Virus record (IMG/VR): IMGVR_UViG_3300017917_003143
Coordinates: 2,095 to 66,094 of that record
Direction: 5' to 3' (one strand)
Length of the DNA stretch: 64,000 nucleotides
Source: a virus
In this document: positions 3,756 to 53,245 of the stretch, piece after piece
Layout of the letters: each line of letters opens with the position of its first letter
Numbering within the stretch: the stretch's first letter is position 1
Notes under the pieces: model-generated
Seen by the model: the letters and a program-made list of their open reading frames with translations, nothing else
Told to the model about the DNA's origin: nothing
The model's database searches: none
Made by a program: the position numbers and the translations under genes

Positions 3756-4324
3756 TGAGCGCAGATATTGATATCGACTTGGCTGACAGAGATCAACTGA
3801 TCCGGTTGATACAATGTGTGCCAGCCAGACAAGAAAACGAGGGACAAGTCCGGCGCCACAATTCTGGTGTATACGTCACAGACATTCCACAGGATCCAAT
3901 CAACGGATGTGCTGCCATAGACTATCGCGAAGCAGAATCTCGAGGATATTTCAAGATAGATTTATTGCATATGAGTGTGTATGATCAGATCAAAAGCCCT
4001 GAACACTACCAACGGATGTTAGATGCAGACCCACCTTGGTCAAGACTTTGGACTGATCAAGCCTGGGCCTCGCAGTTGGTACACGTGGGCAATTATGTGG
4101 ATTTGTTGTGTTCAATGAAGCCCGATTCAATACCCAGGATGGCCGCGTTTATTTCCATCATACGCCCGGGCAAAGCGCATCTTCAAAATCAGCCCTGGGC
4201 AGATGTATTTGAATCAGTGTGGGACGGTGACGACAGTCGGGGCTATACTTTCAAGAAAAGTCATGCTGTGAGCTATGCGGCCTTGGTGGCCTTGCACATG
4301 AACTTACTCAATTCTTCGGACTAA
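3755..4324 (+). CDS. DnaE (Pol III alpha, C-family polymerase) fingers-domain-like fragment
   Basis: GYFKIDLLHMSVY resembles the DnaE K-x-DFLGL motif. RGYTFKKSHAVSYAALVALHMNL resembles DnaE [24 protein letters not shown]. Only 189 aa, so fragment-sized. Confidence 0.4.
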   Translation: MSADIDIDLADRDQLIRLIQCVPARQENEGQVRRHNSGVYVTDIPQDPINGCAAIDYREAESRGYFKIDLLHMSVYDQIKSPEHYQRMLDADPPWSRLWTDQAWASQLVHVGNYVDLLCSMKPDSIPRMAAFISIIRPGKAHLQNQPWADVFESVWDGDDSRGYTFKKSHAVSYAALVALHMNLLNSSD

Positions 4325-4681
4325 TGTAATACTCTTGCGCTTGCTCTTCTTGCGAGCTATGTCGGCAAGACTGGTAGCTGGTCCGTGTAAAATTTCAAGA
4401 TCTTTGTTGATAAAAGTGCGTAGATAAGGGCGGAATATCTCCCAGTCCTGTTTCAAGAAAATGTTTATGGGTATGCTACGATTGCTTTCCCACCACCAAA
4501 CATTGGCCAGTTCAAGGAACAGCTTTTTAAGCTCAGGGTGCGGAATATTACCAAAATCATAGATCGTCGTGACTGCGTCATCGCGATTTTGCACCACGCC
4601 AATGTATTCATTGCCTGCGTAGGTGCAAAAAGTTATAAAAGGGTATCGTTCTGCTATTTTGGTGAAGATCTCTGTGCCCAT
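4304..4681 (-). CDS. hypothetical protein
   Basis: 125 aa ORF exactly filling the gap between flanking + strand genes. Lone minus-strand gene. Confidence 0.45.
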   Translation of the reverse strand: MGTEIFTKIAERYPFITFCTYAGNEYIGVVQNRDDAVTTIYDFGNIPHPELKKLFLELANVWWWESNRSIPINIFLKQDWEIFRPYLRTFINKDLEILHGPATSLADIARKKSKRKSITLVRRIE

Positions 4682-4704
4682 AAATATCTTAAGGAATTAT
4701 TATA

Positions 4705-5700
4705 ATGTATTCTACCACTGCCTATTTATATCAGCAAAAACAACAGGTATTATTGATTGATACCAGTGGTGCTTACTTTGACCGGAGGTGGCAACCTGTG
4801 TACACAAAAAACTTAAAGATACATCGTGGCGTAGACAACGTCATACTGTTTGAATTCGTAAACCAAGACGAAAAGCCCGTGAACATCACGGGTAGCACTA
4901 TCACATTTAGACTGATCAGTACCAACGGAGATATCCTGTTGTTAAGCAAAGACTTGGAAATCCTGAATGCCACCTATGGACGAGCCAAAGTAACACTGCT
5001 TGAATCAGAATTAAACAGCATAGATTCGCAGCCTGTGGGCTGGAGTTTGGAACGCAACACCGTGACCAGCGCACTCTATGAGCCTGTGTTTACAGACGCC
5101 TATTCCGGCGGACGAGGTCGAGCAGACATCGTTGATAGTGTGTACCCAGGTTTCGTGCCCAGCGAAATCATGACCATACCTTCACAAAATCCACAGATCA
5201 ATGTGCAGAATCCCAACAGAGTACACACCAGTGCTGTGTATGTAGAAGGCAGAGAGTTGGTCACTTTCCAGATGGATTTTCTCACCTTTACAGGCAACCT
5301 CAAAGCACAGGCCAGTAAAACACAGTTGGGCCCATGGTATGATGTGGGTAGCCAGATCGAGTATTCAGCCCAGAATACCAGATCCTATATCAACGTAGAA
5401 GGCTATCATGATTACTTGCGTTTTGAAATAAACCAATATGGACAGACGGCCAATGCACAAGCAGTAGTGGCCGGTGGTGAAATCATATCCTTGAATCTCA
5501 CAGGAACTGGAAATCAATGGTATGGTACCACTACTCCTGCTGTGACCATACAGGGTCTTGGCACAGGCGCCACAGCAGTGGCCACAGCCAATTCCAACGT
5601 GGTCACCAGTGTCACGCTGGTCAATGCTGGAGAAGGTTATCTAACCAATCCACAAGTGGCCATCACCAATGGTAGTATCACCAGCATCACGTTTAGATAA
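4705..5700 (+). CDS. hypothetical protein (possibly virion structural)
   Basis: 331 aa. RBS AAGGAAT upstream. CATAAATA motif at 4679-4686 upstream. Thr/Asn/Gly-rich C-terminus. Confidence 0.5.
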   Translation: MYSTTAYLYQQKQQVLLIDTSGAYFDRRWQPVYTKNLKIHRGVDNVILFEFVNQDEKPVNITGSTITFRLISTNGDILLLSKDLEILNATYGRAKVTLLESELNSIDSQPVGWSLERNTVTSALYEPVFTDAYSGGRGRADIVDSVYPGFVPSEIMTIPSQNPQINVQNPNRVHTSAVYVEGRELVTFQMDFLTFTGNLKAQASKTQLGPWYDVGSQIEYSAQNTRSYINVEGYHDYLRFEINQYGQTANAQAVVAGGEIISLNLTGTGNQWYGTTTPAVTIQGLGTGATAVATANSNVVTSVTLVNAGEGYLTNPQVAITNGSITSITFR

Positions 5701-8968: not shown

Positions 8969-10378
8969 ATGAAAGATTATTCAGTAGAAGTACAGCGACT
9001 ATTTTTAGAAATCATGATGCAAGATGCACAGAGTTTTGTGCGTGTGCAAAATATCTATAATGATGAAAACTTTGATCGCAGTTTGCGTAGTGCGGCCAAG
9101 TTCATCAAAGAGCATGCAGACAAGCACAAGACCCTGCCTGATCGCAAACAAGTGTCAGCGGTGACCAATGTCAAACTTGAAGAAATTCCTGATTTAAATG
9201 ACGGACACCTTGACTGGTTTATGGAAGAGTTTGAAGGCTTTACTCGACGCCAGGAACTGGAACGTGCTATCCTTAAATCAGCAGACTTGCTGGAGAAAGG
9301 TAACTTTGATCCGGTAGAAAAACTGATCAAGGATGCTGTGCAAATTAGTTTGACCAAGGACCTGGGCACAGATTACTTTGATGATCCTAGAGCCCGACTC
9401 ATGGCACTGAAAAACAACAACGGGCAAAACTCCACAGGTTGGCCTGCGCTGGATCGACTGCTGTATGGCGGATTCAATCGCGGCGAACTACAGATCTTTG
9501 CTGGCGGTTCAGGATCAGGCAAGAGCTTGTTCATGCAGAACTTGGCAGTGAACTGGGCGCAGGCAGGACTCAACGGCTGTTACATCACACTGGAACTTTC
9601 AGAAGGTCTGTGTTCAATGCGTATAGACTCTATGATGACCAATACATCAGCCAAGGAGATTTTCAAAGACATTGACACAGTGGAAATGAAAGTCAAGATG
9701 ATGCAGAAGAAGTCAGGCGGCTTGCAGATCAAATACATGCCAGCGCAATCAACAGTGAATGACATCCGTGCATACTTAAAAGAACTACAAGTCAAGACAG
9801 GCAAGAAGGTTGACTTTTTGTGTGTTGACTACTTGGACTTGATCATGCCCGTGAGTGCCAAAGTCAGCCCTAACGACTTGTTTGTTAAAGACAAGTATGT
9901 TTCAGAAGAACTGCGTAACTTGGCCAAAGAACTCAATGTGTTGTTTGTCACAGCGTCACAGTTGAACCGTGCGGCAGTGGAAGAGATTGAGTTTGACCAC
10001 AGTCATATTTCGGGCGGTATTTCTAAGATCAACACAGCAGACAACGTGTTTGGTATCTTTACTTCGAGAGCCATGCGTGAGCGTGGACGCTATCAGATCC
10101 AGCTAATGAAGACTCGTAGTTCGTCAGGCGTTGGACAAAAAGTAGATCTTGAGTTTGACATTGAGAGCTTGCGTATCCGAGACCTTGGAGAAGATCAACA
10201 GCAAAGTTCAGGCTTTGTCAAGAAGCCTAGCATCTACGAATCAATCAAGGCCAAGAGCCAGGTAAATTCTAAAAATGACGAAGCAGTAGATGAAGACACT
10301 GGAGAAGTCGCTAAGATCCCAGCCACGGTAGACAGTTCAAAGTTAAAAGATCTACTCAAACAAGTCAGGCCCAATTAA
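8969..10378 (+). CDS. DnaB-like replicative DNA helicase
   Basis: RecA-fold Walker A GGSGSGKS, Walker B region FLCVDYLDL, DnaB-type arginine-finger region. N-terminal helical domain. Confidence 0.85.
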   Translation: MKDYSVEVQRLFLEIMMQDAQSFVRVQNIYNDENFDRSLRSAAKFIKEHADKHKTLPDRKQVSAVTNVKLEEIPDLNDGHLDWFMEEFEGFTRRQELERAILKSADLLEKGNFDPVEKLIKDAVQISLTKDLGTDYFDDPRARLMALKNNNGQNSTGWPALDRLLYGGFNRGELQIFAGGSGSGKSLFMQNLAVNWAQAGLNGCYITLELSEGLCSMRIDSMMTNTSAKEIFKDIDTVEMKVKMMQKKSGGLQIKYMPAQSTVNDIRAYLKELQVKTGKKVDFLCVDYLDLIMPVSAKVSPNDLFVKDKYVSEELRNLAKELNVLFVTASQLNRAAVEEIEFDHSHISGGISKINTADNVFGIFTSRAMRERGRYQIQLMKTRSSSGVGQKVDLEFDIESLRIRDLGEDQQQSSGFVKKPSIYESIKAKSQVNSKNDEAVDEDTGEVAKIPATVDSSKLKDLLKQVRPN

Positions 10379-11434
10379 CTCACACAGTTCAGGCAGATAG
10401 TGCTTGATGCTGATTCCTTTGAGTTGGTCTTGTCGCTTTATCTGTTTTAAAAATTCTTCAAAGTTAGCTTGATCGGCGTCGGTATGAGTGTCGCCTATGT
10501 AGGTAGCATAGTCCACTGGACTCAGTACTGTTTTGAGGTGTTGTTTGACATGCTGAGGTAAAGCACGTGGTTGTAACCATGCTGGTCGATAGATTGGGTT
10601 GTTAGCGTATTCTATTTTTTGTTCATTGAACCATGCCACACTTTCATTGTGATACAGCACATTGAGATTGCTCAAGGTATAGTTTGCTGAAACCAAGTCG
10701 GTTAATTCTCGGAAAAACTTTAGATTTGATTCGAGCAGATCCCAAGCCAGTGGATATCGCACATATTCAAACACAGATCCTGTGCCATCTATGCTGACGC
10801 AAAAATTAAGATTTTTAAATTTTGACAGTATTTTTTTGTAATCTTCAGACAGTGCTACACTACCATTTGTGACCATGCTGATAAAACATCGTTCATTGCC
10901 TAATTCAAGTAACTTTTCTAAGATCTGGAAATTTTTTCTTTCATACAGCGGCTCTCCACCCAGCAAGGTCAGGGTCACAAGGCTTGAAAAATCTATTTCT
11001 TGATAGACTTTGTCCAGATCAATAAATTGATATTTCTTTATTTCTAATTTGGGGTTTCTTTTGCGATCAAGCTGTGCCCAACTGCTACTCGATCCAGAAT
11101 TACAACTCACACAAGTGGCGTTGCAAGTATAGCTGGTCAGCAGTTTGAGCATGAGTGTTTTTTCCATGCCCTGCGCCGCATCTTGTTTAATAAATTGCAG
11201 ATCTCTATCCCAGTACCAATCCAGCGCAGAATTTTTAAGTTGACGATCACTGGTCAACCCTTGATCTTCAAGATTCCAGCATTTTTGACATTCTGCAGGG
11301 CGTTTTCCAGCTATCATTTCCGCCTGGATCTTTTTTATATCATAGTCTTTGGGTAGCAAACAGCAATGGGTATCGTGGCGATCGTCCCAATTTAATTCAC
11401 GTCCAAACCAGGGTAAAACACAAAAATTGTCCAT
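10352..11434 (-). CDS. radical SAM domain protein (possible SPASM/Cys-rich auxiliary region)
   Basis: CX3CX2C motif (CNATCVSC). Additional Cys-rich N-terminal segment (CCLLP...CQKCW). Confidence 0.7.
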   Translation of the reverse strand: MDNFCVLPWFGRELNWDDRHDTHCCLLPKDYDIKKIQAEMIAGKRPAECQKCWNLEDQGLTSDRQLKNSALDWYWDRDLQFIKQDAAQGMEKTLMLKLLTSYTCNATCVSCNSGSSSSWAQLDRKRNPKLEIKKYQFIDLDKVYQEIDFSSLVTLTLLGGEPLYERKNFQILEKLLELGNERCFISMVTNGSVALSEDYKKILSKFKNLNFCVSIDGTGSVFEYVRYPLAWDLLESNLKFFRELTDLVSANYTLSNLNVLYHNESVAWFNEQKIEYANNPIYRPAWLQPRALPQHVKQHLKTVLSPVDYATYIGDTHTDADQANFEEFLKQIKRQDQLKGISIKHYLPELCELIGPDLFE

Positions 11435-15762: not shown

Positions 15763-16221
15763 ATGCTGGAGCGGATCACCAAAGATCACTTATTAAATAA
15801 CCCTAACGCTATAATACGCATCGATAGCGCCATACGTGCCTTTGGCAAATACACTATCATTAGAAACAGCAAGTCTTTTCAAGTATATCGCAGTGCCACA
15901 TTGGCAGTAGAACCCAGTTCCAGCAAGGTAGCTATCAGCTGGTGTGTAGCAGACAAATACGGCAAGCATTCTTTGGCACACGATTTAATAACATACGATG
16001 CAGAAGTAGAACGCAGACAAGATGAAATAATGTATTACCGCAATACTTTAAACTGCGACCAGGATACTGTGCTTAAATCCGTGGTTGCAGACCGGTTGGC
16101 CGAAAGCATGGCACGACTAAAATACGCTCAAGAACAGTTGGATAAATGTGTAAATCTGGCTAAATACTGGCAACTAAAAGGATTCAAAGATGAAACTGCA
16201 AGAATTGGAATCAAGAACTAA
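15763..16221 (+). CDS. hypothetical protein
   Basis: First ATG after the stop of 15482..15742 within ORF 15439..16221. The upstream part of that ORF is low-complexity read-through. Confidence 0.45.
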   Translation: MLERITKDHLLNNPNAIIRIDSAIRAFGKYTIIRNSKSFQVYRSATLAVEPSSSKVAISWCVADKYGKHSLAHDLITYDAEVERRQDEIMYYRNTLNCDQDTVLKSVVADRLAESMARLKYAQEQLDKCVNLAKYWQLKGFKDETARIGIKN

Positions 16222-17188
16222 AATACAACAAAGCCTCAAGGTTTTTGAAAGTCATTTTGGACAAACTTTGGCCATCGATGCCATAACCGCACGTCAGGCA
16301 CAAGAGATGCTGAAAAAGGTGCGAGGACTTATACGTGAGCATCGTGCAACGCCCGAGTTTCATCGTAGCGAACAAAACCCCAGCTATCTAAAATTGGTTG
16401 TCATGGAACGTGCTCTCGAAGCTCGTGTTAAAGAATCTCAACCAGGCGCCGCTCCTGGCATGGCCATGGCACAACAAGATCCACGCCAACAGGCAGCCGA
16501 TGCACAGGCTTCAGCAGCCGCTACCAAGCGTATCGCTACCGGTACTGGACAAATGGGCAAAGCTGGTGTAGTAGGCAAGGCCATTGATTCCGCTATCCAA
16601 GGCAAGACATTGACACCCGCTGAAAAAGCAGTGATCGGTAAAACATTGTCCACAGTACAACAAGCCGCTGCCAAAGACACACGTCTACAGCAGATGTTGA
16701 AAACAGCCACTGCCATGGAAAGCAAAAAAGCACGTCGCTTGCGTGAAGCCAGTGAGCTACAACAAGCACAAGTGGTCTTGGCCGCACAAGACATGGTAGA
16801 CCAGATCCAGAAAATGATCGAGCAAGTGTCAGCCATGCAGTTCAAAGATCTTCCAGCCTTGGTGGATTCAATCCGCAATGACGTTGGCATGGATCAAGCA
16901 CAACAGTTTAACAATGATGTCACAGCCGCACTACAAGGTCTTATCCAGGGCCTCCAGGGTTCCAAAACCCAGCTGGAAACCGCACAAGGTGTGCTTACAG
17001 GTCAAGCCCCAGTGGTGCCCGGACAAGATGCTGGCGCCGCAGGAGCCGCTCCCCTTCCAGGAAGCACTCTACCCGGTGCTGGTCAGGGTGAAGTAGATGT
17101 TGATGCTGATCTCAGCCTTGACGCTAATCTTCCACCTGAGGATGACGAAGAGCTTCCAGCCAAGGCACTAGGTCGCGAGCGTAGATAA
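16190..17188 (+). CDS. Ala/Gln-rich coiled-coil protein (scaffold-like)
   Basis: 332 aa with long A/Q/K-rich predicted helices and an acidic C-terminus. Composition typical of scaffolding/internal proteins. Confidence 0.45.
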   Translation: MKLQELESRTKIQQSLKVFESHFGQTLAIDAITARQAQEMLKKVRGLIREHRATPEFHRSEQNPSYLKLVVMERALEARVKESQPGAAPGMAMAQQDPRQQAADAQASAAATKRIATGTGQMGKAGVVGKAIDSAIQGKTLTPAEKAVIGKTLSTVQQAAAKDTRLQQMLKTATAMESKKARRLREASELQQAQVVLAAQDMVDQIQKMIEQVSAMQFKDLPALVDSIRNDVGMDQAQQFNNDVTAALQGLIQGLQGSKTQLETAQGVLTGQAPVVPGQDAGAAGAAPLPGSTLPGAGQGEVDVDADLSLDANLPPEDDEELPAKALGRERR

Positions 17189-17189
17189 T

Positions 17190-17519
17190 ATGTTGATCCG
17201 AGAGTTCCAGGATCCGGACGCACTGAAACTGGCCGCCATAGGCCAGTTTTTGCTCAAGCGAGCACAAGACACAGATGCTATCAAACCCATGGACGTAACT
17301 GCGTTCATTGAGTTGGCTCGCCAGAATCAGATCAATTTGACTCCCGAGAGACTCAACCAACTGTCACAACGAGAGCCGCTCAATGGCGTGATTGATAGCA
17401 TACAAAATGACCAGATCATCTGGAAAGGTTCGCGTGTGCCCAGCGATCCTACAATGAGAGTGGACCAAGCTCGTAAAAAAGTCGACCAAATGGCCAAGCG
17501 AGCCATTGATCTCAAGTAA
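17190..17519 (+). CDS. hypothetical protein
   Basis: 109 aa ORF. ATG 2 nt after the upstream stop. Confidence 0.45.
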   Translation: MLIREFQDPDALKLAAIGQFLLKRAQDTDAIKPMDVTAFIELARQNQINLTPERLNQLSQREPLNGVIDSIQNDQIIWKGSRVPSDPTMRVDQARKKVDQMAKRAIDLK

Positions 17520-17531
17520 ATACCAAAACGG

Positions 17532-17560
17532 TTGACAAAGTCAACAAAAACAATTATAAT
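17532..17560 (+). promoter_or_regulatory. consensus sigma70 promoter TTGACA-17-TATAAT with palindrome GTTGACAAAGTCAAC over the -35
   Basis: Perfect -35 and -10 hexamers with a 17 nt spacer. 15-bp perfect inverted repeat overlaps the -35. RBS AGGAGA precedes iscU. Confidence 0.75.
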
Positions 17561-17578
17561 AGATCATAGGAGATCGGT

Positions 17579-17959
17579 ATGGCTTATTCTGACAAAGTTA
17601 TTGACCACTACGAAAACCCTCGCAACGTAGGGAGTTTTGATAAATCTGATGACAGCGTGGGCACCGGTATGGTGGGAGCACCTGCTTGCGGTGATGTCAT
17701 GAAATTACAAATAAAGGTAAACAACCATGGTATCATTGAGGACGCGAAATTCAAAACCTACGGTTGCGGTAGTGCCATCGCATCGTCCTCTCTTGTTACC
17801 GAGTGGGTTAAAGGCAAAACGCTGGACGAAGCCTCAACTATTAAAAATTCAGCGATTGCTGAAGAACTCGCCTTGCCACCAGTCAAAATACATTGTAGCA
17901 TCCTTGCTGAAGATGCGATCAAAGCGGCCATAGAGGATTATCGTAAAAAACATGGTTGA
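17579..17959 (+). CDS. iscU: Fe-S cluster assembly scaffold IscU
   Basis: GAPACGDVMKLQIKV, YGCGSAIASSSL and LPPVKIHCSILAEDAIKAA signature blocks. 126 aa. Confidence 0.9.
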   Translation: MAYSDKVIDHYENPRNVGSFDKSDDSVGTGMVGAPACGDVMKLQIKVNNHGIIEDAKFKTYGCGSAIASSSLVTEWVKGKTLDEASTIKNSAIAEELALPPVKIHCSILAEDAIKAAIEDYRKKHG

Positions 17960-18866
17960 TTGGACCAATTGCGAGGATTGGTTTCAAGAATGCCAACTCG
18001 ACCCTGACAAACACGAGCTTTGGTTGGGTGACAATCCGCCAAATGCGAAAAAAGGAAAACGTGTGTTCTGGGTCAGCCACGAGACTCGCGGCATGGCCAA
18101 CAAAGACAGATGCAAAGATCAGGACTTGATAATTTTTGATTCTGGTGTCGATGACAGTGGCATAGTGAATCCTTACATGTTACACTGGCATCTTTCTGCT
18201 GATGCCAACGCTGTTTACAAATTCACAGACCGCATAAAATATCAAGACTCCGGGTTGGTGTTTGATGCTTTGCTGGGTACCAGAAGACCGCACCGAGACT
18301 TTGTCTGGCAATGGTTTGAAAATGATACTGAGTTAAAAACCGCAGGATACATCACATATCATCGGGTGGCTGGAAACAAACAGGATTTCCATGTGGACCA
18401 GGATGTAGATCTGTCAGCGTTCAAGCGCAGTTCATCGACTGTAGAATATCAAGGAGAGTCTGTGGGTTACTGTTCTATGATACCCACAGAAATTTACAGC
18501 AAGACTTATGTCAGTCTTGTGGCAGAAACATATAAACCAGTCAATGATTGGTCATTTTTTACTGAAAAGATCAGCAAGCCCATGTTGGCGAGACGACCTT
18601 TTGTAGTGATATCCAATAGACATTATCTACGCAGACTGAGATCCATGGGTTTCAAAACCTTTGATAGCATCATTGACGAAAGTTATGATGAGCTACAAGA
18701 TGACACAGCACGATGGTCTGCGGCAATGACACAATTAAAAAAGATAGTCGAGATGCCCAGAGATCATTTGTTAGAACTATCCTCTGATATATTAGATCAC
18801 AATCGGCAGTTGATGAATCAACCTTGGATGAGGATTTTTAAAAATAAATTAAAGGAGTTGCGATGA
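17952..18866 (+). CDS. hypothetical protein, paralog of 50916..52007 (glycosyltransferase-like?)
   Basis: Shares the C-terminal block RPFVVISNRHYLRRLRSMGFKTFDSIIDESYDE with the other paralog's FILFAPPGSLQYLKDYGFKTFDHCWDESYDHE. Confidence 0.55.
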   Translation: MVDWTNCEDWFQECQLDPDKHELWLGDNPPNAKKGKRVFWVSHETRGMANKDRCKDQDLIIFDSGVDDSGIVNPYMLHWHLSADANAVYKFTDRIKYQDSGLVFDALLGTRRPHRDFVWQWFENDTELKTAGYITYHRVAGNKQDFHVDQDVDLSAFKRSSSTVEYQGESVGYCSMIPTEIYSKTYVSLVAETYKPVNDWSFFTEKISKPMLARRPFVVISNRHYLRRLRSMGFKTFDSIIDESYDELQDDTARWSAAMTQLKKIVEMPRDHLLELSSDILDHNRQLMNQPWMRIFKNKLKELR

Positions 18867-19192
18867 TCAATATAACTGAACAAGCGGCTTGCAAAGTCAA
18901 AGAAAATCTATCACGTAGAGGACACGGCGTGGGCATCAAGATAGGAGTCAAAACCACTGGATGCTCAGGCCTGGCCTATACGTTAGAGTATGTAGATGTC
19001 GAGCAAGGAAAAGAGCACTGCATGGCACACTATGATGTCAATGGTGTGCGCATCTATGTAGATCCCAAACATCGCCCTTATCTTGAAGGCATGACCATGG
19101 ATTGGATACGCCAAGGCCTCAACGAAGGTTTTGATTTTATTAACCCCAATGAAAAAGACCGCTGTGGATGCGGGGAAAGTTTCCGTGTATAA
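18863..19192 (+). CDS. iscA: Fe-S cluster insertion protein IscA/ErpA (HesB family)
   Basis: KIGVKTTGCSGLAY and C-terminal CGCGESF cysteine motifs. 109 aa. Confidence 0.85.
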   Translation: MINITEQAACKVKENLSRRGHGVGIKIGVKTTGCSGLAYTLEYVDVEQGKEHCMAHYDVNGVRIYVDPKHRPYLEGMTMDWIRQGLNEGFDFINPNEKDRCGCGESFRV

Positions 19193-19898
19193 CCCAAAAT
19201 TTGATTACCAACCCTTGAGCCGTACCAGCGAAGATGGACGACGATTGTATCTTACTCCCGACGGAAAAAAGCTACCCAGTGTTACGACTATTTTAGACAA
19301 GACCAAGCCCGAAGAAAAGAAAGCCGCGCTCAATGCCTGGAGAAACCGTGTGGGTCATGCACAAGCACAGGCCATAACCACTGAAGCGGCTAATCGTGGC
19401 ACCCGTATGCACACTTATCTTGAGCACTATGTCAAAACAGGTGAACTCAAAGAACGCGGGTCCAACCCATATTCTTGGGCCAGCCATGTCATGGCAGAAA
19501 CAGTGATCAGCCAGGGATTGAAAAACGTCACGGAATTCTGGGGTGTGGAGATACCCTTGTACTTTCCTAAATTATACGCAGGAACCACTGACGGTGCGGG
19601 CATACATTTAAATGACGAAAGTATCCTGGACTACAAGCAGACCAACAAACCCAAGCGCGAAGAGTGGATCGAAGACTATAAACTACAGCTCGTGGCCTAT
19701 GCCCTGGCACACAACGAAGTCTACGGTACAAAAATACGCAAAGGTGTGGTGCTGATGTGCGTCAAGCCCGAAGTTGATGCCATGGGAAATCCTATTACAG
19801 ACCCACAATATCAAGAATTTGTGTTAAAAGAAGCAGATTTTGACTACTGGGAACAGCAGTGGTGGAAGCGTCTTGAGCTGTATTACTTGACCAGCTAA
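19185..19898 (+). CDS. PD-(D/E)XK nuclease (RecB/Cas4-like fold)
   Basis: GTTDGAGIH, ILDYK and QLVAY (QxxxY) motif order typical of RecB-family nucleases. GTG start assumed. Confidence 0.5.
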   Translation: MYNPKFDYQPLSRTSEDGRRLYLTPDGKKLPSVTTILDKTKPEEKKAALNAWRNRVGHAQAQAITTEAANRGTRMHTYLEHYVKTGELKERGSNPYSWASHVMAETVISQGLKNVTEFWGVEIPLYFPKLYAGTTDGAGIHLNDESILDYKQTNKPKREEWIEDYKLQLVAYALAHNEVYGTKIRKGVVLMCVKPEVDAMGNPITDPQYQEFVLKEADFDYWEQQWWKRLELYYLTS

Positions 19899-25437: not shown

Positions 25438-26649
25438 ATGAAAAAACGGAACTACACACAAGAGGATGTAAAGAAGTTACAAGGTAGTTTAAAGATTGAA
25501 TACACACTGGCAAAACGAGGCGCAACAAAATTGCGTGAATTGCTAGCCACAGAACCATTTGTTCCTACACTAGGAGCATACAATGGACAGCAGGCAGTAC
25601 AACATGCCAAAGCTGGACTTAAAGCAATCTATCTATCAGGTTGGCAAGTGGCCGCTGCCGCAAATACCAGTGGTCGTGTTTATCCAGACCAATCACTATA
25701 CCCAGTTGACTCAGTGCCTAGTGTTGTTAAAGAAATCAACAACGCACTTCGCCGTGCTGATCAAATCCAAACACTAGAAGGAGTCGGTACAACAGACTAC
25801 TACTTGCCTATCATCGCAGACTGTGAAGCAGGCTTTGGTGGAGCACTAAACGCATACGAACTAACACTGAGCTGTATCGAAGCAGGTGCGGCCGCTGTTC
25901 ACTTTGAAGATCAATTGAGTTCAGAAAAGAAATGCGGACACCTGGGTGGTAAAGTATTGATTCCAACCAAACAGGCTATTCGTAACTTAAATGCCGCACG
26001 ACTGGCCGCTGATGTTGCAGAAGTAGACACAGTTATTCTTGCTCGCACAGACGCAGAGTCAGGCACATTGATTACCAGTGACATTGATCCTGTGGATCAA
26101 CCATTTGTTGACTACACAAAAGAACGTACTGAAGAAGGCTTCTATCACTTTAAGAATGGTCTAGGTGCTTGTATTGCTCGTGGTCTTGCTTATGCTGAAT
26201 ACGCAGACTTGTTATGGTTTGAAACATCAACTCCTGACCTGGCACAAGCTCAAGCATTCGCTGATGCTATCCATGAAAAGTTTCCAAATCAACAGTTGGC
26301 CTACAACTGCTCACCTAGCTTCAACTGGCGCAAGTATTTGACAGAAGAACAATGTGAGAGCTTCCAAGCAGAGATTGGTCGGATGGGCTATGCTTATCAG
26401 TTCATTACACTTGCTGGCTTCCACTGCAACAACTTGGCTACTTTTGAAATGGCAGAAGCCTATCAAAAGACAGGCATGCGTGGCTATTCAGAAATGCAAC
26501 AACGTGAGTTCGCCGCACAAGAGCGTGGCTTTACCACAGTTAAGCATCAGCGTGAAGCAGGCGTTCCATACTTTGATGCTATCGCTACAGCAGTTGGCGC
26601 AACATCAACAACAGCATTGGCACACTCAACAGAAGCGGATCAGTTTTAA
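25438..26649 (+). CDS. aceA: isocitrate lyase
   Basis: ICL signature KKCGHLGGK within a 403 aa ICL/PEP-mutase-fold protein. N-terminus typical of ICL. Confidence 0.8.
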
Positions 26650-31474: not shown

Positions 31475-31647
31475 TCAGAATGCTGGGTGTTTGGGTTTTA
31501 GTCAGCGTGGTAATCGGTATCCTTATTGTGGCTTTTAGAGAAGCTACTAAAAAGGAAAGATGGGAGTTGACAAAAACTGTGGTCTTTGCTACAATGTGTG
31601 GACTCATTGCCTCAATCCTGTTGGGGTTTATTGTAATACTCTTTTAA
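31471..31647 (+). CDS. small two-TM membrane protein
   Basis: ATGA overlap with the ligase stop. Two hydrophobic helices. 58 aa. Confidence 0.4.
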   Translation: MIRMLGVWVLVSVVIGILIVAFREATKKERWELTKTVVFATMCGLIASILLGFIVILF

Positions 31648-31655
31648 GGAATCTC

Positions 31656-32453
31656 ATGAAACGATCTTTTGCTACTCTTAGCCTCGTTGCCGCCGCAGTT
31701 CTTGCCACCGGTTGTACTCGCATTGAAACCGGTGAGGTTGGTGTGCGTGTTGGGTTTGATAAACAGGTCAAACCAGGTGAACTGCTACCTGGTTCCTTCA
31801 ACCAAGTCATTATCGGTGATGTTCTTACATTCCCTGTCAAGGACGTCAACGTCAAGTTGGACGATATGACTCCTGTTGCTAAAGACAACTCGACTATGAA
31901 GGACCTTGATGCTGTGGTCATTTACAACATCAACCAAGCACAGGTCGCCGAACTGTATAGCCAGAAGAGTCAAGCCTTCCACGCCAAACACAATGGTGAT
32001 ATCTACTTGATGTACAACTACATTGTGCAAACTGCTCGCAACGCTATCTACAAAGAAGCTCGCAAGTATGAAGCTCTGGACATGGCAGACAATCGACAGT
32101 CTATGGAACAGGCTATCAAAGAGCAGATCCAAAAGAGTCTTGCCGAAGAAAAACTCGATGGCAGTTTGGTTGTAAGCCAGGTCTTGATCCGCAACATCGT
32201 ACCTGCTGATAGTGTGGTTGAAAGCGCCAACGCTCTTGTTCGTGCTAAGAACGAATACAAGCAAAAGGAAGTTGAAGTGGCCACTGCCAAGAAAGAAGCA
32301 GAGCGTATGGCCGCCCTGGCTAACAACTCTGCCAGTTCTATCGCGTTCATGAACGCACAGGCCGCACTGAATATCAGTGAAGGTATCAAGAATGGCAAGG
32401 TACAGACCATTGTTGTTCCCAGCAACATGACTGGCTTGATGATTGGCAAGTAA
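31656..32453 (+). CDS. lipoprotein, possibly SPFH/band-7-like
   Basis: Lipobox LATGC after the signal peptide. RBS AAGGA. Ala/Glu-rich C-terminal helices. Confidence 0.5.
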   Translation: MKRSFATLSLVAAAVLATGCTRIETGEVGVRVGFDKQVKPGELLPGSFNQVIIGDVLTFPVKDVNVKLDDMTPVAKDNSTMKDLDAVVIYNINQAQVAELYSQKSQAFHAKHNGDIYLMYNYIVQTARNAIYKEARKYEALDMADNRQSMEQAIKEQIQKSLAEEKLDGSLVVSQVLIRNIVPADSVVESANALVRAKNEYKQKEVEVATAKKEAERMAALANNSASSIAFMNAQAALNISEGIKNGKVQTIVVPSNMTGLMIGK

Positions 32454-35601: not shown

Positions 35602-36801
35602 ATGAATGAATCGTCTCAATATGAAAATTGCAGTTTTTGTAACAAACACAAAGACGAAGTAAAGAAACTGATAGTTGGCAATGGTGTAGCTATATGCAAT
35701 GAATGTGTCGACCTTTGCCAGAGTTTATTGGATGAAGACATCAAGGAAAGACCCAAGGATCTCACTGACATAGATCCACAAGAACTTAAATCCTATCTTG
35801 ATCAATATGTGATAGGTCAGGATCGCGCAAAGATGGTACTGAGCGTGGCCATCTCCAATCATTACAAGCGAATCCAACATCGCGATTCTGATGTAGAAAT
35901 TGACAAAGCCAACATCCTCATGCTTGGACCCACTGGGTCGGGCAAAACCTTGTTGGCCAAAACTGTGGCACGGTATCTCGACGTGCCGTTTGCCATAGCA
36001 GATGCCACATCTGTGACCGAAGCCGGATATGTAGGCGATGATGTAGAAAGCCTGATCCAGCGCCTGCTTACTGCCGCTGGTGGCGATGTAGAAAAATGCC
36101 AACGTGGTATCATATTTGTCGACGAGATCGACAAGATCGCTCGCAAGAGTGAGTCAGCATCAATCACAAGAGATGTTTCGGGAGAAGGTGTACAACAGGC
36201 CTTGCTTAAAATGGTCGAGGGCACTGTTTGTCGCATACCAGCCGCAGGTGGCCGCAAGCATCCAGGCGGTGAAATGCTTGAAGTTGATACCCGTAACATA
36301 CTGTTTATCGCAGGCGGTGCGTTTGTTGGTCTAGACCAGATAGTTAAAAAACGCATGTACGGTACCAGCATGGGCTTTGGTGCCACAGTGAGCCAACCCA
36401 AAGAAATCAGTCTTGAGCACGTGGTACCCGACGACCTTGTGAAGTTTGGATTGATTCCTGAATTCGTGGGTCGATTCCCTAGCTGGGTCAATCTGGATGA
36501 ACTCACCACAGAAGATCTTATCCATGTGCTCACAGATACTAAAAACTCATTGGTCAAGCAATATCAGCACCTTTTTGCCGCAGACAAAGTCGACCTTGAT
36601 TTTGAGCATGAAGCTCTAGAAACTATCGCGAAGAGATCAGCAGATTTTGGAACCGGTGCCCGTGCTCTGCACAGCGAACTTGAGCGTGTGTTGATGCCAC
36701 ACATGTTCAATATCAAACGCTACCGAGACCGTGGAATAAACCGCGTAGTTATTAACAAAGAACAAATAAATAATCCTACACCCGTTTACAAGGAGGAATA
36801 G
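35602..36801 (+). CDS. clpX: ATP-dependent protease ATPase subunit ClpX
   Basis: N-terminal C4 zinc-binding domain (CSFCNK...CNEC). Walker A GPTGSGKTLLAKT, Walker B IFVDEIDKI, sensor and IGF-loop region. Confidence 0.95.
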   Translation: MNESSQYENCSFCNKHKDEVKKLIVGNGVAICNECVDLCQSLLDEDIKERPKDLTDIDPQELKSYLDQYVIGQDRAKMVLSVAISNHYKRIQHRDSDVEIDKANILMLGPTGSGKTLLAKTVARYLDVPFAIADATSVTEAGYVGDDVESLIQRLLTAAGGDVEKCQRGIIFVDEIDKIARKSESASITRDVSGEGVQQALLKMVEGTVCRIPAAGGRKHPGGEMLEVDTRNILFIAGGAFVGLDQIVKKRMYGTSMGFGATVSQPKEISLEHVVPDDLVKFGLIPEFVGRFPSWVNLDELTTEDLIHVLTDTKNSLVKQYQHLFAADKVDLDFEHEALETIAKRSADFGTGARALHSELERVLMPHMFNIKRYRDRGINRVVINKEQINNPTPVYKEE

Positions 36802-40017: not shown

Positions 40018-40464
40018 ATGAACAAATGGCTGGTCGCCATAATAACAAATCTGATAATGACCAGCATCGCAGTAAGTGGTGAGCTGGTACATCAATTCAA
40101 TAGCCCGTCCTTTAGTGGTCAAGGCTACAGTTCTCACGTCTTGACAATAGAACAATTAGAAGCCACGAGAAAAAAGGCCATAGCCGATGCACAACGAGCG
40201 GCACAAGACAAAGCCGAACGCGATGCAAAAAATACCAACTTGGCCAAGTTCTTGGTCAACGTTGAAAGTCGTATCTACGCACAGCTTTCCAAACAGTTAG
40301 CAGATGCTATGTTTACCGAAAGTGGTGCGTCATCGGGTGCCATGGATTTCCAAGGTACCAATATCAGTTGGGTCAAGACAGGTACAGATGTCACGCTGAC
40401 CATTATGGAATCCAACGGTAATCGCACAGAGATTACAGTACCTATAGCGAGCTTCAGTTTCTGA
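40018..40464 (+). CDS. csgF: curli assembly protein CsgF-like
   Basis: Signal peptide. Mature N-terminus HQFNSPSFSGQG matches the CsgF QFRNPNFGG motif. Adjacent to csgG. RBS AGGAG. Confidence 0.7.
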   Translation: MNKWLVAIITNLIMTSIAVSGELVHQFNSPSFSGQGYSSHVLTIEQLEATRKKAIADAQRAAQDKAERDAKNTNLAKFLVNVESRIYAQLSKQLADAMFTESGASSGAMDFQGTNISWVKTGTDVTLTIMESNGNRTEITVPIASFSF

Positions 40465-45545: not shown

Positions 45546-45575
45546 AAAGCCCCTTACGGGGCTTTGATTATTTCT
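45546..45575. terminator. bidirectional rho-independent terminator
   Basis: AAAGCCCC-ttac-GGGGCTTT hairpin flanked by T runs on both strands. Sits between convergent genes. Confidence 0.65.
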
Positions 45576-50622: not shown

Positions 50623-50942
50623 GTAAGTTCTTTAACTTTTTCAGCAACCTACGTGCTAACTTTAGTCAGTGGTTGAGCGAGAGCTTGCACACAGTATCAG
50701 CAGAAACTCTGGGCTGGTTGGCAGTGATCTTGATACACGGTGCCACGGTGCCTACATTATTGGCCATACTCACCGGACTCAGTGATCGCACTCCATCAGT
50801 TGATATCATCTTGTTGATGTGGGGCGGCCTGGTGCTGTTGTTTGGTCGTGCAGTGGTGCTCAAAGATTCATTGAACATCATCACCATTGGCGCAGGCTTT
50901 ATCGTACAAGCTGTGTTAATGGCCTTGATTTTGTTCAAGTAA
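50619..50942 (+). CDS. holin-like 3-TM membrane protein
   Basis: ATGA overlap with the lysin stop. 107 aa with three hydrophobic helices. Confidence 0.45.
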   Translation: MSKFFNFFSNLRANFSQWLSESLHTVSAETLGWLAVILIHGATVPTLLAILTGLSDRTPSVDIILLMWGGLVLLFGRAVVLKDSLNIITIGAGFIVQAVLMALILFK

Positions 50943-52007
50943 AGCCCGATCCATATTGGTGCGTAATTCCAGGAGCAGGTCATCCTGGAATTCTTTACTG
51001 AAAAATCTTTTCCTATTGTGTTCGATCACAGGCAAGGCTTGCTGATAGAGATCTTGGAATTTGTCCTGAGACATGTTGGCAAGCTGATCGATCAATTCCA
51101 ACAACAACGACATGCGTTTGGTTGAATCAGTTTCATGATCGTAGCTCTCATCCCAGCAGTGATCAAACGTTTTGAAACCGTAGTCCTTTAGATACTGCAA
51201 ACTGCCCGGTGGCGCAAACAAAATAAAAGGCTGGCTCATGACCATGGGCTTGAATACCTTTTCGGTAAGATAGATTTTGTCAGTGTCAAACAGCGTTTCG
51301 GCTACCAAGTGTACCGCGGAATCCACAGCATCTGGAATGTCAATCTTGGCACTGTATGTTGGGTCCACTTGTGTGCCGTCCCAGTTGTGCCGTATCATGT
51401 TCTGATATTGGCGACAGTGCGCCAGCAATTCTTTTCTATAGATACGTGTTCCGTCCTGGGCACGACTGTATAATAGGAATCTGTGTTGGCAATTGGATTT
51501 GTCAATGGGTGCTAAATCTTGATAATGTTCCCAATGCCGGAACCAGTCACGGGCAGTCAGTCCGTGCCACCAATAGTAACAGTCAACAAATCCATGCTCG
51601 TTTAAGATCCTGATGTCTTGGCTGTTTAACTCACTGTGGCAGATGATGGGCCGATCTTCCATGACTAAACGCATGAACTCAAAAACATCACAGTCATTGG
51701 CATGTTTTTTAAGATTGAATTCTATGGCCTTTCTTTGGTTTTCTCCTTGGATCAGTAGATTTTTTTGGTCACACAGAGTTTTTCTATAAGTATCCATATA
51801 ATTAAGATCCAATGGTTCCTGATCATGCATGACGATCCTTTTGAAGCTGATAAAGTCTTTGTTAAAGTCGGATTGAGTGACTGCAAATGGTTCTAAATTA
51901 TGGAGATCTTTTGCCCCATGTGGGCGGAATATCATCACAAGGTTATTGGTTTTTTCGTGTCCGTATTCATGGACGAAAAAATCGTAAAAGTTATCAACGG
52001 AGAACAT
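50916..52007 (-). CDS. hypothetical protein, paralog of 17952..18866 (glycosyltransferase-like?)
   Basis: Shares the GFKTFD...DESYD C-terminal block and several upstream blocks with 17952..18866. Confidence 0.55.
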   Translation of the reverse strand: MFSVDNFYDFFVHEYGHEKTNNLVMIFRPHGAKDLHNLEPFAVTQSDFNKDFISFKRIVMHDQEPLDLNYMDTYRKTLCDQKNLLIQGENQRKAIEFNLKKHANDCDVFEFMRLVMEDRPIICHSELNSQDIRILNEHGFVDCYYWWHGLTARDWFRHWEHYQDLAPIDKSNCQHRFLLYSRAQDGTRIYRKELLAHCRQYQNMIRHNWDGTQVDPTYSAKIDIPDAVDSAVHLVAETLFDTDKIYLTEKVFKPMVMSQPFILFAPPGSLQYLKDYGFKTFDHCWDESYDHETDSTKRMSLLLELIDQLANMSQDKFQDLYQQALPVIEHNRKRFFSKEFQDDLLLELRTNMDRALLEQNQGH

Positions 52008-52009
52008 AA

Positions 52010-53245
52010 ATGAATATCGGTTTTATTGGCTTAGGTAAATTAGGTTTAGACTGCGCAGAAGTCTTTGCAGAACGCTACTCAGTCTATGGTTATGATATAT
52101 ATCCACGCTACAGCGACACAGTCAAAGTTTGCACCAATGTGGAAGAAGTCATTGACCACAGTGACTGGTTGTTCATTGCTGTACCTACTCCACATGCCGA
52201 AGGCTATGATGGGTCAGTACCGAGCTCACACATGGAACCCCGGGATTTTGGCCATGAAGCTGTCAAGCAAGCCATTGAGTATGTGAATGCCTATGCCAAG
52301 GAACCCAAGCGTGTTGTATTGATCTCTACTGTGCTACCAGGCACCACCCGACGCCACTTTGCTACTCTGTTGGACAAGCGTCACCAGTTCTTATACAACC
52401 CGTATTTGATTGCCATGGGTTCTGTGAAGTGGGACATGGCCAATCCTGAGATGGTAATGATTGGTACAGAAACAGGTGATCCTAGTGAAATGCGTGATCT
52501 CATTGATTTGTACCGACCATTGATGAAAAACAACCCACGCTATGTCACAGGTACCTGGGACGAATGCGAAGCCATCAAGATTTTCTACAACACATTCATC
52601 TCAGCCAAGGTTGGTTTGGTAAACATGATCCAAGACTTTGCCTTAAAAATTGGCAACATCAACGTAGACGTTGTGACAGATGCCTTGGCACAATCCACCA
52701 TGCGTATCATGGGACCCAAGTACATGACAGCAGGCATGGGTGATGCAGGTGCTTGCCACCCACGTGATAACATCGCCCTGCGTTGGTTGGCCGAAGAATA
52801 CGACATTGGATATGACTTGTTTGATACCATCATGCATGCTCGTGAAGTGCAGGCCAAGAACCTTGCGCTGTTCTTGGTAGATCAAGCTAAAACAAACAAT
52901 CTGCCTATCGTGATACACGGCAAAGCATACAAGCCAGATGTTCCCTACTGTATTGGAAGCTATTCTACGCTGATTGGATACTACATCAATGAAGCAGGTT
53001 TCACAGTGAAATACCTGGATCCCTTGGCCGATGACAGCACTGACGTGATCGAAGCTGTCAAAGGTGCTTGTGTATTGCTCATGGCACACAATCGACAGAT
53101 CACATACGGTTACACCGGAGATGTGCGTGATGACACTTTTTATGCACCCATAGAAGCAGGATCTATCATCGTAGATCCATGGCGCAAACTCAATGACATA
53201 GCAGGATACAAAATTATCCATTATGGTAATACAAGAAAAAACTAA
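52010..53245 (+). CDS. nucleotide-sugar dehydrogenase (UDP-glucose/GDP-mannose dehydrogenase family)
   Basis: N-terminal Rossmann IGFIGLGKLGL. VVLISTVLPGTT block. Catalytic Cys region GMGDAGACHPRD resembles GGxCFxKD. Confidence 0.65.
   Translation: MNIGFIGLGKLGLDCAEVFAERYSVYGYDIYPRYSDTVKVCTNVEEVIDHSDWLFIAVPTPHAEGYDGSVPSSHMEPRDFGHEAVKQAIEYVNAYAKEPKRVVLISTVLPGTTRRHFATLLDKRHQFLYNPYLIAMGSVKWDMANPEMVMIGTETGDPSEMRDLIDLYRPLMKNNPRYVTGTWDECEAIKIFYNTFISAKVGLVNMIQDFALKIGNINVDVVTDALAQSTMRIMGPKYMTAGMGDAGACHPRDNIALRWLAEEYDIGYDLFDTIMHAREVQAKNLALFLVDQAKTNNLPIVIHGKAYKPDVPYCIGSYSTLIGYYINEAGFTVKYLDPLADDSTDVIEAVKGACVLLMAHNRQITYGYTGDVRDDTFYAPIEAGSIIVDPWRKLNDIAGYKIIHYGNTRKN

Follow-up and report, generated by a model that had tools for sequence, protein, structure and literature searches.

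Between iscU and iscA in a jumbo phage lies gene X, a member of a new glycosyltransferase-like family; it was shuffled into a phage Fe-S cassette that is already known. The fold of X, its family, the anatomy of its junctions, the conservation of its promoter and the statistics of its neighbours are demonstrated here. In our judgement, X is probably a nucleotide-sugar-dependent GT-B glycosyltransferase, placed by cassette exchange and with no direct part in Fe-S metabolism; its family is very large, lacks annotation and is found almost exclusively in viruses. Pfam, PHROGs and NCBIfam contain no model for it. A GT-B glycosyltransferase fold, backed by controlled comparisons of genomic context, can now be given to the family, and several genes in each genome of many large uncultured phages would thereby gain a provisional annotation. 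Existing ideas are not overturned by these findings.

The iscU-X-iscA block and its Fe-S genes

The features of the window (the whole 64-kb stretch of viral DNA analysed) are collected in Table 1.

Table 1. Features of the window discussed in the text
Feature	Position	Strand	Evidence
Twitch-domain radical SAM enzyme, candidate IscU/IscA client	10352..11434	-	Pfam Radical_SAM; NF033640 216 bits vs cut-off 170
Conserved genes anchoring the block upstream: 332-aa virion structural protein and 109-aa protein	16190..17519	+	PHROG 14154; synteny in relatives
Sigma-70-type promoter TTGACA-17-TATAAT, 18 nt upstream of IscU ATG	17532..17560	+	12/12 match
Shine-Dalgarno AGGAG for IscU, 6 nt before ATG	17568..17572	+	Read from sequence
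IscU Fe-S scaffold, 126 aa	17579..17959	+	C37, D39, C63, H105, C106, LPPVK motif
Gene X, 304 aa, GT-B-fold glycosyltransferase-like, unannotated viral family	17952..18866	+	
Shine-Dalgarno AAGGAG for IscA, inside X 3' end	18852..18857	+	Read from sequence
IscA-type A-type Fe-S carrier, 109 aa	18863..19192	+	C34, C101, C103
PD-(D/E)XK exonuclease, conserved downstream anchor of the block	19131..19898	+	Pfam PDDEXK_1; PHROG 298 at 7e-52
Gene Y, 363 aa, X paralog over most of its length	50916..52007	-	BLASTP 3e-16; profile 5.6e-38; HHalign 7e-48
Nucleotide-sugar dehydrogenase, UDP-glucose/GDP-mannose dehydrogenase family, divergent neighbour of Y	52010..53245	+	Pfam UDPG_MGDP_dh, UDPG_MGDP_dh_N; TIGR03026

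A sequence-only reading of this DNA had placed IscU, X and IscA in overlapping succession, and ORFs are indeed present at those coordinates on the + strand, the overlaps measuring 8 nt between IscU and X (ATGGTTGA) and 4 nt between X and IscA (ATGA, with the stop codon of X over the IscA ATG). The splitting of iscU and iscA by gene X, as that reading described it, is real: window positions 17854-19147, which span both junctions, recur with 100% identity in an independent Logan assembly, and in consequence the arrangement is not an assembly chimera. The start of the exonuclease gene overlaps the 3' end of IscA, with which it probably shares a transcription unit, and the block runs on into exonuclease and class I RNR. 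An identity of this exonuclease as a Cas4-type Fe-S nuclease was ruled out by the single Cys in its sequence.

The perfect-consensus promoter reported at 17532 holds as well, and it is the sole perfect TTGACA-17-TATAAT site in the 64 kb (0.09 expected; one or more such sites occurred in 9/100 shuffled windows). In 12/26 relatives a promoter occupies the same position, with 9-12 of 12 matches and 16-18 nt between the end of its -10 box and the IscU ATG. The -35 box is contained in a palindrome, GTTGAC-AAA-GTCAAC (17531-17545), whose stem is kept in the relative L061 with a different loop. Since the promoter is real, the proposed co-expression of X with the Fe-S genes is likely, as judged from the sequence. 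Transcription of iscU, X and iscA would all start from this conserved sigma-70 (early) promoter of iscU; the overlaps of stop and start codons point to coupled translation, which is probable for all three genes.

IscU matches Pfam NifU_N at 2.6e-54 and PHROG 8429, passes the TIGR01999 equivalog model (232.3 bits vs a cut-off of 192.4), and carries the ligands C37, C63 and C106 (plus D39 and H105) and the chaperone-binding LPPVK motif, all at E. coli-equivalent positions. Its identity to the IscU of 80 viral contigs is 83-92%. IscA matches Pfam Fe-S_biosyn at 7.6e-16 and has the Cys...Cys-Gly-Cys triad (C34 in TGCSG, C101 and C103 in RCGCGESF); it passes the A-type carrier model TIGR00049 (98.2 bits vs 58.8) but does not reach the cut-off of the IscA equivalog TIGR02011 (131.2 bits vs 150.6) and, hence, is best named an IscA-like A-type carrier. 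The phage shares with the bacterial iscRSUA-hscBA-fdx operon the order iscU-then-iscA, the ligand residues and the HscA-binding LPPVK, but it holds the scaffold and the carrier in interrupted form, with no IscS or HscA homolog (Aminotran_5, HSP70) among the scanned window ORFs of 330 aa or more.

Marine viral genomes have been described that carry gammaproteobacterial-type IscU, A-type carriers and radical SAM genes, read as coordinating Fe-S supply (Nishimura et al., 2017, PMC5332604). The IscU and IscA of the window are auxiliary metabolic genes of that kind; what differs here is that a gene for a non-Fe-S protein separates the two and that radical SAM adjacency was quantified. In 71 dereplicated related loci, radical SAM genes account for 7/148 of the genes adjoining IscU/IscA vs 0/575 further out (p 0.004), which supports the conclusion that phage Fe-S scaffold genes travel with phage radical SAM clients. 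The pairing of Fe-S supply with Fe-S clients that had been proposed thus holds for radical SAM enzymes (7/7 directly adjoin IscU/IscA). It was wrong for class I RNR, the cofactor of which is di-metal/tyrosyl and not an Isc-built Fe-S cluster. IscU and IscA, together with host IscS and HscBA, would provide clusters for phage radical SAM enzymes, and the adjacency gives a concrete reason for phages to keep Fe-S scaffolds, i.e., to feed their own radical SAM enzymes.

Fold, family and paralogs of gene X

The AF2 model of X (pLDDT 93.5, pTM 0.91) shows the features of a GT-B fold: two Rossmann-like beta/alpha/beta domains with an interdomain cleft. A Foldseek search against the PDB ranked GT10 first, GT10 being the closest fold, and against BFVD the model gave 28 matches at E<=1e-3, among them a mimivirus GT10. 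Another BFVD match is a 788-aa protein annotated as UDP-glucose/GDP-mannose dehydrogenase (N-terminal domain), and the structural match suggests a dehydrogenase fused to an X-like domain. Nevertheless, X differs from the GT10 alpha-1,3/4-fucosyltransferases (H. pylori FucT, human FUT9, plant FUT11/FUT13): (i) structural-alignment identity is 8-12%; (ii) there is no Glyco_transf_10 match at E<=1; (iii) X has its own invariant IIDESYD and LLGxxRPHR; and (iv) its distribution is almost entirely viral.

Sequence searches with X and Y found no match in Pfam (E<=0.01), PHROGs or NCBIfam; the 53 family members together matched 19 Pfam families at E<=1, Glyco_transf_10 not among them, and a profile search of the family against PDB sequences returned a spurious OppA match alone (E 0.26). 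At the sequence level, X appears to have no tie to any curated glycosyltransferase family. DUF5580_C, described as an EF-hand-like domain, was matched weakly by 9/53 members (best E 5e-5), which we put down to chance resemblance to the acidic DESYD loop.

All family-invariant residues are kept in X: E44, H114/R115, E192, E205-K206, K209, D242-E-S-Y-D246, R254 and N284. The C-terminal Rossmann-like domain (LLGxxRPHR, ET...(F)TEKxxKP, GFxTFDxIIDESYD, R254, N284) is predicted to bind the activated sugar, and the small, variable N-terminal domain may bind the acceptor, with the invariant E44 as candidate catalytic base. The putative enzyme would use a sugar activated by UDP or GDP, which may be an acid or a 6-deoxy sugar, and would most likely transfer it to a glycan or to a component of the virion or of the host surface. 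An Fe-S protein is not what the sequence of X supports: the family has no conserved cysteine (the top alignment column is 42% Cys), and X itself has four scattered Cys, no CxxC-type motif and no Radical_SAM or Fer4 match.

Gene Y had been named as the sole recognisable relative of X. The kinship was borne out by alignment: BLASTP gives 36% identity over the C-terminal 113 aa (E 3e-16), and profile-profile comparison (HHalign) aligns X 39-304 with Y 121-359 over 261 columns (probability 100, E 7e-48). Y has a C-terminal donor-type domain as in X and a more divergent N-terminal half; its orthologs adjoin the dehydrogenase gene in 19/80 X-anchored loci. That Y stands alone is wrong, given that the family comprises more than 13,000 sequence clusters (about 13,500) with several divergent paralogs per genome, and hints at extensive unrecognised phage glycosylation chemistry.

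No match was obtained when X and Y were searched by tblastn against the 50,697 phage genomes on deposit, nor from megablast of the region or tblastn of P0011 in GenBank phages. In 185,579 bacterial and archaeal species genomes the family is almost absent, five loci being found: one (L171) seems to be a phage contig that was binned with a MAG; in Acuticoccus the neighbouring genes (UvrA, GidA) are uninformative; and in Shimia biformata a GDP-mannose 4,6-dehydratase gene follows the family gene at a distance of 23 bp.

Probable gene exchange at the iscU/iscA junction

IscU and IscA are adjacent in 54/80 related loci. The relatives L061, L020 and L015 read AAAAAACATGAT, where the IscA ATG overlaps the IscU His codon. 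That is exactly where the ATG of X sits in L037, in L410 and in the window. Compared with the closest relative, L061 (76-83% nucleotide identity), the surplus of the window is exactly the X ORF. Among the closest relatives the slot itself varies, X following the 109-aa gene, IscU or IscA. Of the nearest family members, about one in four is found immediately downstream of IscA, and in L001, L411 and L413 an X-like gene is found upstream of the IscU promoter.

We infer that the position of X reflects the exchange, presumably by recombination, of a gene-sized cassette at the boundary of iscU and iscA, in which the cassette took over the ATG of iscA. As X begins on that ATG and its stop codon covers the present one, iscU, X and iscA share a promoter and are probably coupled. 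An insertion into a borrowed isc operon had been suggested; cassette shuffling between genes of a long-standing phage block describes the event better. The junction anatomy illustrates how an auxiliary operon may be remodelled gene by gene with its translational coupling unbroken, because the cassette takes over the start codon of the downstream gene.

In T4-type phages, PeSL-mediated modular shuffling produces gene-sized indels at gene boundaries and involves an early promoter plus a stem-loop (PMC2839356, PMC4122927). The likeness lies in the gene-sized boundary indels between close relatives and in the palindrome over the -35 box, at the edge of the variable unit; the junctions of X differ, consisting of overlapping start and stop codons without a promoter or stem-loop motif. 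No tRNA or Rfam family was found in the 64-kb window.

A cassette in so permissive a junction could also be a passenger without current function, a decaying or inactive glycosyltransferase-like gene. The instability of its exact slot would agree with this, as would the shortness of its subfamily (304-315 vs about 360 aa, with a reduced N-terminal domain). But the X ORF is intact, with every family-invariant residue kept; its model is confident throughout; its start and stop overlaps are precise, with the IscA Shine-Dalgarno retained inside it; and its GC and GC3 match those of neighbouring genes. Furthermore, members of the short subfamily, 34-44% identical, survive in five other independent contigs (L001, L410, L411/L412, L413). 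A passenger is therefore highly improbable.

Neighbours of the X family

The genes at +-1 of 75 dereplicated family genes were compared with control genes 4-9 positions away. Nucleotide-sugar enzymes make up 18/149 of the former vs at most 2/91 of the latter (p 0.002-0.007) and comprise (i) 11 nucleotide-sugar dehydrogenases, vs 1 in the controls; and (ii) 7 epimerase/dehydratases of the GDP-mannose-dehydratase type, vs at most 1. In L178, a family member lies inside a deoxysugar cluster, which also holds a radical SAM gene.

Radical SAM genes are the Pfam family most often adjoining family genes (16/149), but they are equally common 4-9 genes away (7/91, p 0.50), which makes them regional or genome-wide rather than gene-specific. 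Hence, a specific adjacency to X-family genes was discarded, the Pfam control having removed the enrichment; nor was any enrichment by offset seen in the 80 nearest loci. A wider dereplicated set, scanned with a local HMM, gave 9.0% at -1/-2 vs 4.5% elsewhere (odds ratio 2.1, p 0.0005), the clusters being phylogenetically non-independent.

These counts bear on an alternative that we regard as unlikely, namely a glycosyltransferase whose donor or acceptor is made or tailored by a phage radical SAM enzyme, the linkage to iscU/iscA being functional (Fe-S supply, then tailoring, then transfer). The persistence of the X subfamily near IscU (29-44% identity in the window and six other independent contigs: L001, L037, L410, L411/L412, which share one protein, and L413), the quarter of the nearest members downstream of IscA and some distant members embedded in radical SAM/SPASM operons (L168/L176: rSAM|X|..|SPASM|rSAM|X'|rSAM) make a tie to Fe-S clients conceivable. 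The local-HMM counts and the L178 cluster lean the same way, as do L169/L170, with rSAM-287aa-X beside a PIG-L deacetylase, and L001 and L037, where radical SAM and X-like genes flank IscU/IscA. Against it stand not only the control counts but also the sole radical SAM gene detected in the window by local HMM scan, which lies 6.5 kb from X on the opposite strand; the many family members that have no radical SAM gene nearby, among them those beside the dehydrogenase, those at g431 and those in the helicase-primase position; and the X-like genes upstream of the IscU promoter. The earlier suggestion that X works with Fe-S clients thus found no support, considering the lack of conserved Cys, the variable slot and radical SAM genes at control level.

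A more elaborate version, quite unlikely in our view, joins all of this in one phage pathway: an Fe-S-fed radical SAM enzyme would tailor an unusual sugar or cyclitol, joined in the Y block by a StrB1-like amidinotransferase and the sugar dehydrogenase, and the X family would attach the product to the virion or host surface. If true, the co-location of X with iscU/iscA would be functional rather than historical.

Glycosylation of modified bases in phage DNA, as performed by the GT-B alpha- and beta-glucosyltransferases of T4 on hmC, is a very unlikely role for X, although early expression alongside nucleotide-metabolism genes would suit it. The promoter is of a consensus early type, the block continues to exonuclease and class I RNR, and a dCMP deaminase fills the same variable slot in relatives; DUF6267 is common to this phage and T4-like cyanophages, and the exonuclease resembles RaK2-like jumbo phage enzymes, its closest cultured relatives being in RaK2-like and Atu_ph07-like jumbo phages. 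However, GT10, GT90, GT47 and GT4 outscore the T4 enzymes as matches to X, and no hydroxymethylase was seen among the scanned subset of window ORFs. Unlike the T4 enzymes, the X family is multi-paralog and sits beside sugar-tailoring genes; with several divergent paralogs per genome, and linked as it is to genes for sugar dehydrogenase, dehydratase and amidinotransferase, it is a better fit for the synthesis of glycans or glycoconjugates.

The iscU-X-iscA locus and its promoter

The gene layout proposed from the sequence alone (IscU, then X, then IscA) was borne out exactly by the ORF check. The window IscU retains C37, D39, C63, H105, C106 and LPPVK, and the IscA-like carrier has a complete Cys triad and does not reach the IscA equivalog cut-off. 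The ATG of X falls within the final IscU codons (ATGGTTGA), its TGA overlaps the IscA ATG (ATGA), and the AAGGAG for IscA is located within the 3' end of X. Since window 17854-19147, which spans both junctions, is matched at 100% identity by a Logan assembly of one sequencing run, the arrangement is not chimeric.

Features of the window, with positions
Feature	Position	Strand	Evidence or context
Twitch-domain-family radical SAM gene	10352-11434	opposite to X	
Palindrome GTTGAC-AAA-GTCAAC	17531-17545		encloses -35 box of IscU promoter
IscU promoter, TTGACA-17-TATAAT	17532-17560		
IscU	17579-17959		Pfam NifU_N 2.6e-54; NCBIfam iscU equivalog 232 bits (cut-off 192)
X	17952-18866		304 aa, between IscU and IscA
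IscA-like A-type carrier	18863-19192		Fe-S_biosyn 7.6e-16; TIGR00049 passed
PD-(D/E)XK exonuclease	19131-19898	+	
Isocitrate lyase	25438-26649		Pfam ICL 2.7e-100; directly 3' of class I RNR genes
SPFH/Band 7 protein	31560-32453		
ClpX-like unfoldase	35602-36801		with zinc finger
CsgG-like curli secretion channel	40464-41591		fused to SH3 domain; with TerC and the cyclase below, unusual cargo
TerC membrane protein	45568-46239	-	
Adenylate/guanylate cyclase	46366-48432		CHASE2 sensor
Amidinotransferase block	50916-55948		Y / sugar dehydrogenase / g178 / amidinotransferase / g431
Y	50916-52007	-	363 aa
Amidinotransferase	53740-54660	+	TTG start; full-length StrB1 homolog, PDB 1bwd E 1.1e-63
UvdE UV endonuclease	56887-57915		

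The promoter 5' of IscU is the sole perfect sigma-70 consensus in 64 kb (0.09 expected) and is followed by AGGAG. A sigma-70-type promoter (9-12/12) is present in 12 of 26 relatives, with the end of the -10 box 16-18 nt 5' of the IscU ATG. The persistence of this position amid diverged surrounding sequence makes a good comparative case that the promoter is real, early and used by host RNA polymerase, with a short leader. The window copy should serve IscU, X and IscA, and probably also the exonuclease overlapping IscA; between the promoter and the exonuclease no terminator looked convincing. Co-expression of X with the Fe-S genes, previously proposed along with this promoter, is thus likely, as predicted from the promoter. 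The palindrome enclosing the -35 box recalls the PeSL (promoter/stem-loop) cassettes found in T4-type phages; in L061, the closest relative, the stem is retained and the loop differs (TCT).

A viral family of predicted glycosyltransferases

Neither X nor its relative Y has any match in Pfam, PHROGs or NCBIfam, and every database relative is labelled 'hypothetical protein'. Y had been regarded as the sole recognisable relative of X; instead, a 53-member profile searched against 1.84 billion cluster representatives found 13,502 clusters (50% identity) at E<=1e-3 and 10,826 at E<=1e-10. At least 546 copies occur in IMG/VR contigs, and just five family loci in cellular genomes (one each for 185,579 bacterial and archaeal species); tblastn with X, Y and a typical member gave no match in 50,697 GenBank phage records. 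One locus, L171 (NZ_JBBAKG010000031.1; 69,978 bp, 45% GC), is filed under a Haliscomenobacter MAG, into which phage DNA has probably been binned: in order and length, its ORFs (family gene, 236, 533, 141 and 772 aa) match the phage clade block family gene, exonuclease, fibre and RNR, homology being confirmed for the family gene only.

BLASTP aligns X and Y over their C-terminal 113 residues only (E 3e-16). Nevertheless, a profile made without Y scored it at 5.6e-38, and HHalign of the X-type and Y-type alignments gave probability 100 and E 7e-48 over 261 columns (X 39-304 / Y 121-359), so that, by profile comparison, X and Y are paralogs over most of their length, in agreement with the relatedness first claimed. 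The family alignment has (i) invariant residues (E192, K206, G233, T236, F237, D242-E-S-Y-D246, R254, N284); (ii) almost invariant ones (E44, H114-R115); and (iii) the resulting motifs LLGxxRPHR, ET...TEKxxKP and GFxTFDxIIDESYD. In BFVD, the X model hits numerous phage proteins that are uncharacterised, along with a mimivirus GT10 and a protein of 788 aa whose annotation reads UDP-glucose/GDP-mannose dehydrogenase (N-terminal). X is predicted to represent a new, sequence-isolated family inside the known GT-B class; a glycosyltransferase fold was one of two that the sequence-only reading suggested looking for, and it holds. In addition, since Cys reaches at most 42% in every alignment column and X has no CxxC motif, X is predicted not to be an Fe-S protein. 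GT-B enzymes with a common donor class but different acceptors usually have a conserved C-terminal and a diverged N-terminal domain; the conserved donor-type C-terminal domain and diverged N-terminal halves of X and Y may then indicate the same donor class and other acceptors. P0121, P0123 and P0124 (822-867 aa) carry two complete X-like units fused in tandem in one polypeptide.

Genomic context was taken from 317 viral and metagenomic loci anchored on the family, whose family genes fell into 228 clusters on dereplication at 60% identity. For 75 representatives picked at random, the genes at +-1 were scanned against Pfam, and those 4-9 positions away served as control.

Pfam families beside family genes and in the control
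Pfam family	+-1 neighbours	Control
Radical_SAM	16/149	7/91
UDPG_MGDP_dh (nucleotide-sugar dehydrogenase)	11/149	1/91
Epimerase / GDP_Man_Dehyd type	7/149	outside top 25 (at most 1 of 91)
E1_dh	4/149	1/91
Fe-S_biosyn	3/149	not among families listed
CTP_transf_like	3/149	not among families listed
DegT_DnrJ_EryC1	2/149	not among families listed

Nucleotide-sugar enzymes are enriched at +-1 (p 0.002-0.007) and Radical_SAM is not (p 0.50): adjacency is specific for the former. Individual neighbourhoods agree with these statistics: (i) Y divergently adjoins a nucleotide-sugar dehydrogenase gene; (ii) in L178, a member lies within a deoxysugar cluster (three epimerase/dehydratases, dTDP-sugar isomerase, GT7, cytidylyltransferase); and (iii) in the isolate Shimia biformata, a copy lies 23 bp 5' of GDP-mannose 4,6-dehydratase.

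The amidinotransferase near Y retains the catalytic GGGFHC of StrB1, which acts in streptomycin biosynthesis as L-arginine:inosamine-phosphate amidinotransferase. Its block is conserved across ~20 viral contigs that are related, where the far end usually carries another gene of the X family, and suggests a phage cluster tailoring a guanidino-sugar or cyclitol.

Fe-S supply and radical SAM enzymes

The proposed tie between the phage Fe-S genes and radical SAM clients holds. Among 71 dereplicated IscU-anchored loci (local HMM), radical SAM genes make up 7/148 genes directly beside IscU/IscA vs 0/575 further away (p 0.004). The pair is flanked by radical SAM genes in L001, L009, L011, L037 and L058, and the IscU-IscA gap is filled by a 219-aa gene plus a radical SAM gene (L009), a B12-binding radical SAM gene (L011) or a radical SAM/SPASM gene (L058). 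As seven of seven radical SAM genes adjoin IscU/IscA, these data support a supply role of the phage scaffold and carrier for the phage's own radical SAM enzymes, as proposed earlier (Nishimura et al. 2017; PMC5332604). This quantified adjacency, together with a provisional annotation for a very large viral 'dark' family, is the main value of the analysis.

A role of X itself with Fe-S clients, also put forward, is not supported, which leaves the original interpretation upheld in part. Class I RNR, named as one such client, is not known to be an Isc client. A functional link of the X family with radical SAM enzymes seems improbable: it fails the 4-9-gene control, the closest X relatives often lie 5' of the promoter that serves IscU, and the only radical SAM gene in the window is 6.5 kb off, on the other strand. 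In its favour, the local-HMM analysis gave a 2-fold radical SAM excess at -1/-2, and some operons combine both gene types: L168 (6632-17125 of a 155-kb phage contig) and L176 (5629-14246 of a 68-kb phage contig) each have one overlapping operon in which four or five radical SAM/SPASM genes are interleaved with two family members (at least one in L176), and in L169 one operon, beside a PIG-L deacetylase, joins a family member to a 287-aa gene and a radical SAM gene.

Insertion of X into a phage gene block

The source contig measures 343,632 bp. From a virion protein PHROG, a DUF6267 protein shared with T4-like cyanophages and an exonuclease with ~42% identity to its counterparts in RaK2-like and Atu_ph07-like jumbo phages, the phage is judged to be large and T4-superfamily-related, without close cultured relative. 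Loci of the phage type have in common a block that starts with a virion protein of 332 aa and a 109-aa protein, continues with IscU, IscA and exonuclease, and ends with a pectate-lyase-like fibre and RNR; variable genes sit at the gene boundaries. In 80 IscU-anchored viral loci (83-92% identity), IscA directly follows IscU in 54, is separated by a gap in eight, lies upstream in four and is not seen in 14, a contig end being the cause in some of these.

In L061, L020 and L015, the IscA ATG overlaps the IscU His codon (AAAAAACATGAT); in the window, L037 and L410, the X-type gene uses that same ATG. Compared with L061 (76-83% nucleotide identity on both sides), exactly the X ORF is extra in the window; what L061 has in addition is a 220-aa gene separating IscA from the exonuclease. 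X occupies its place as a cassette inserted precisely into a phage Fe-S module of known type. Members of the short subfamily (X and P0002-P0005, 34-44% identity) are confined to this block, after the 109-aa gene (L001, L411, L413) or after IscU (window, L410). A different, larger subfamily directly follows IscA in ~20 of the 80 nearest family loci, and others occupy the helicase-primase position and both ends of the Y-dehydrogenase-g178-amidinotransferase-g431 block. In the simplest account, related phages would exchange a gene cassette by way of iscU and iscA, whose high conservation suits them as flanks, in a block that may have hosted family members since long ago.

In L413 (1-60 and 930-963), a direct repeat, ATTGATCTCAA[A/G]TAA, flanks the closest X homolog (44% identity); it is a duplicate of the 3' end of the 109-aa gene that lies upstream, and looks like the footprint of a short-homology insertion. 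L001 (2002-2115) has, ~1.2 kb ahead of its intact IscU and just 5' of a radical SAM/SPASM gene, a 36-aa piece of NifU_N that shares 68% identity with IscU residues; it looks like a remnant of IscU duplication or recombination. L030, L035 and L038 are among the relatives with inverted order (IscA, then IscU), and in L012 an Fe/Mn superoxide dismutase (4268-4870) lies directly 5' of IscU.
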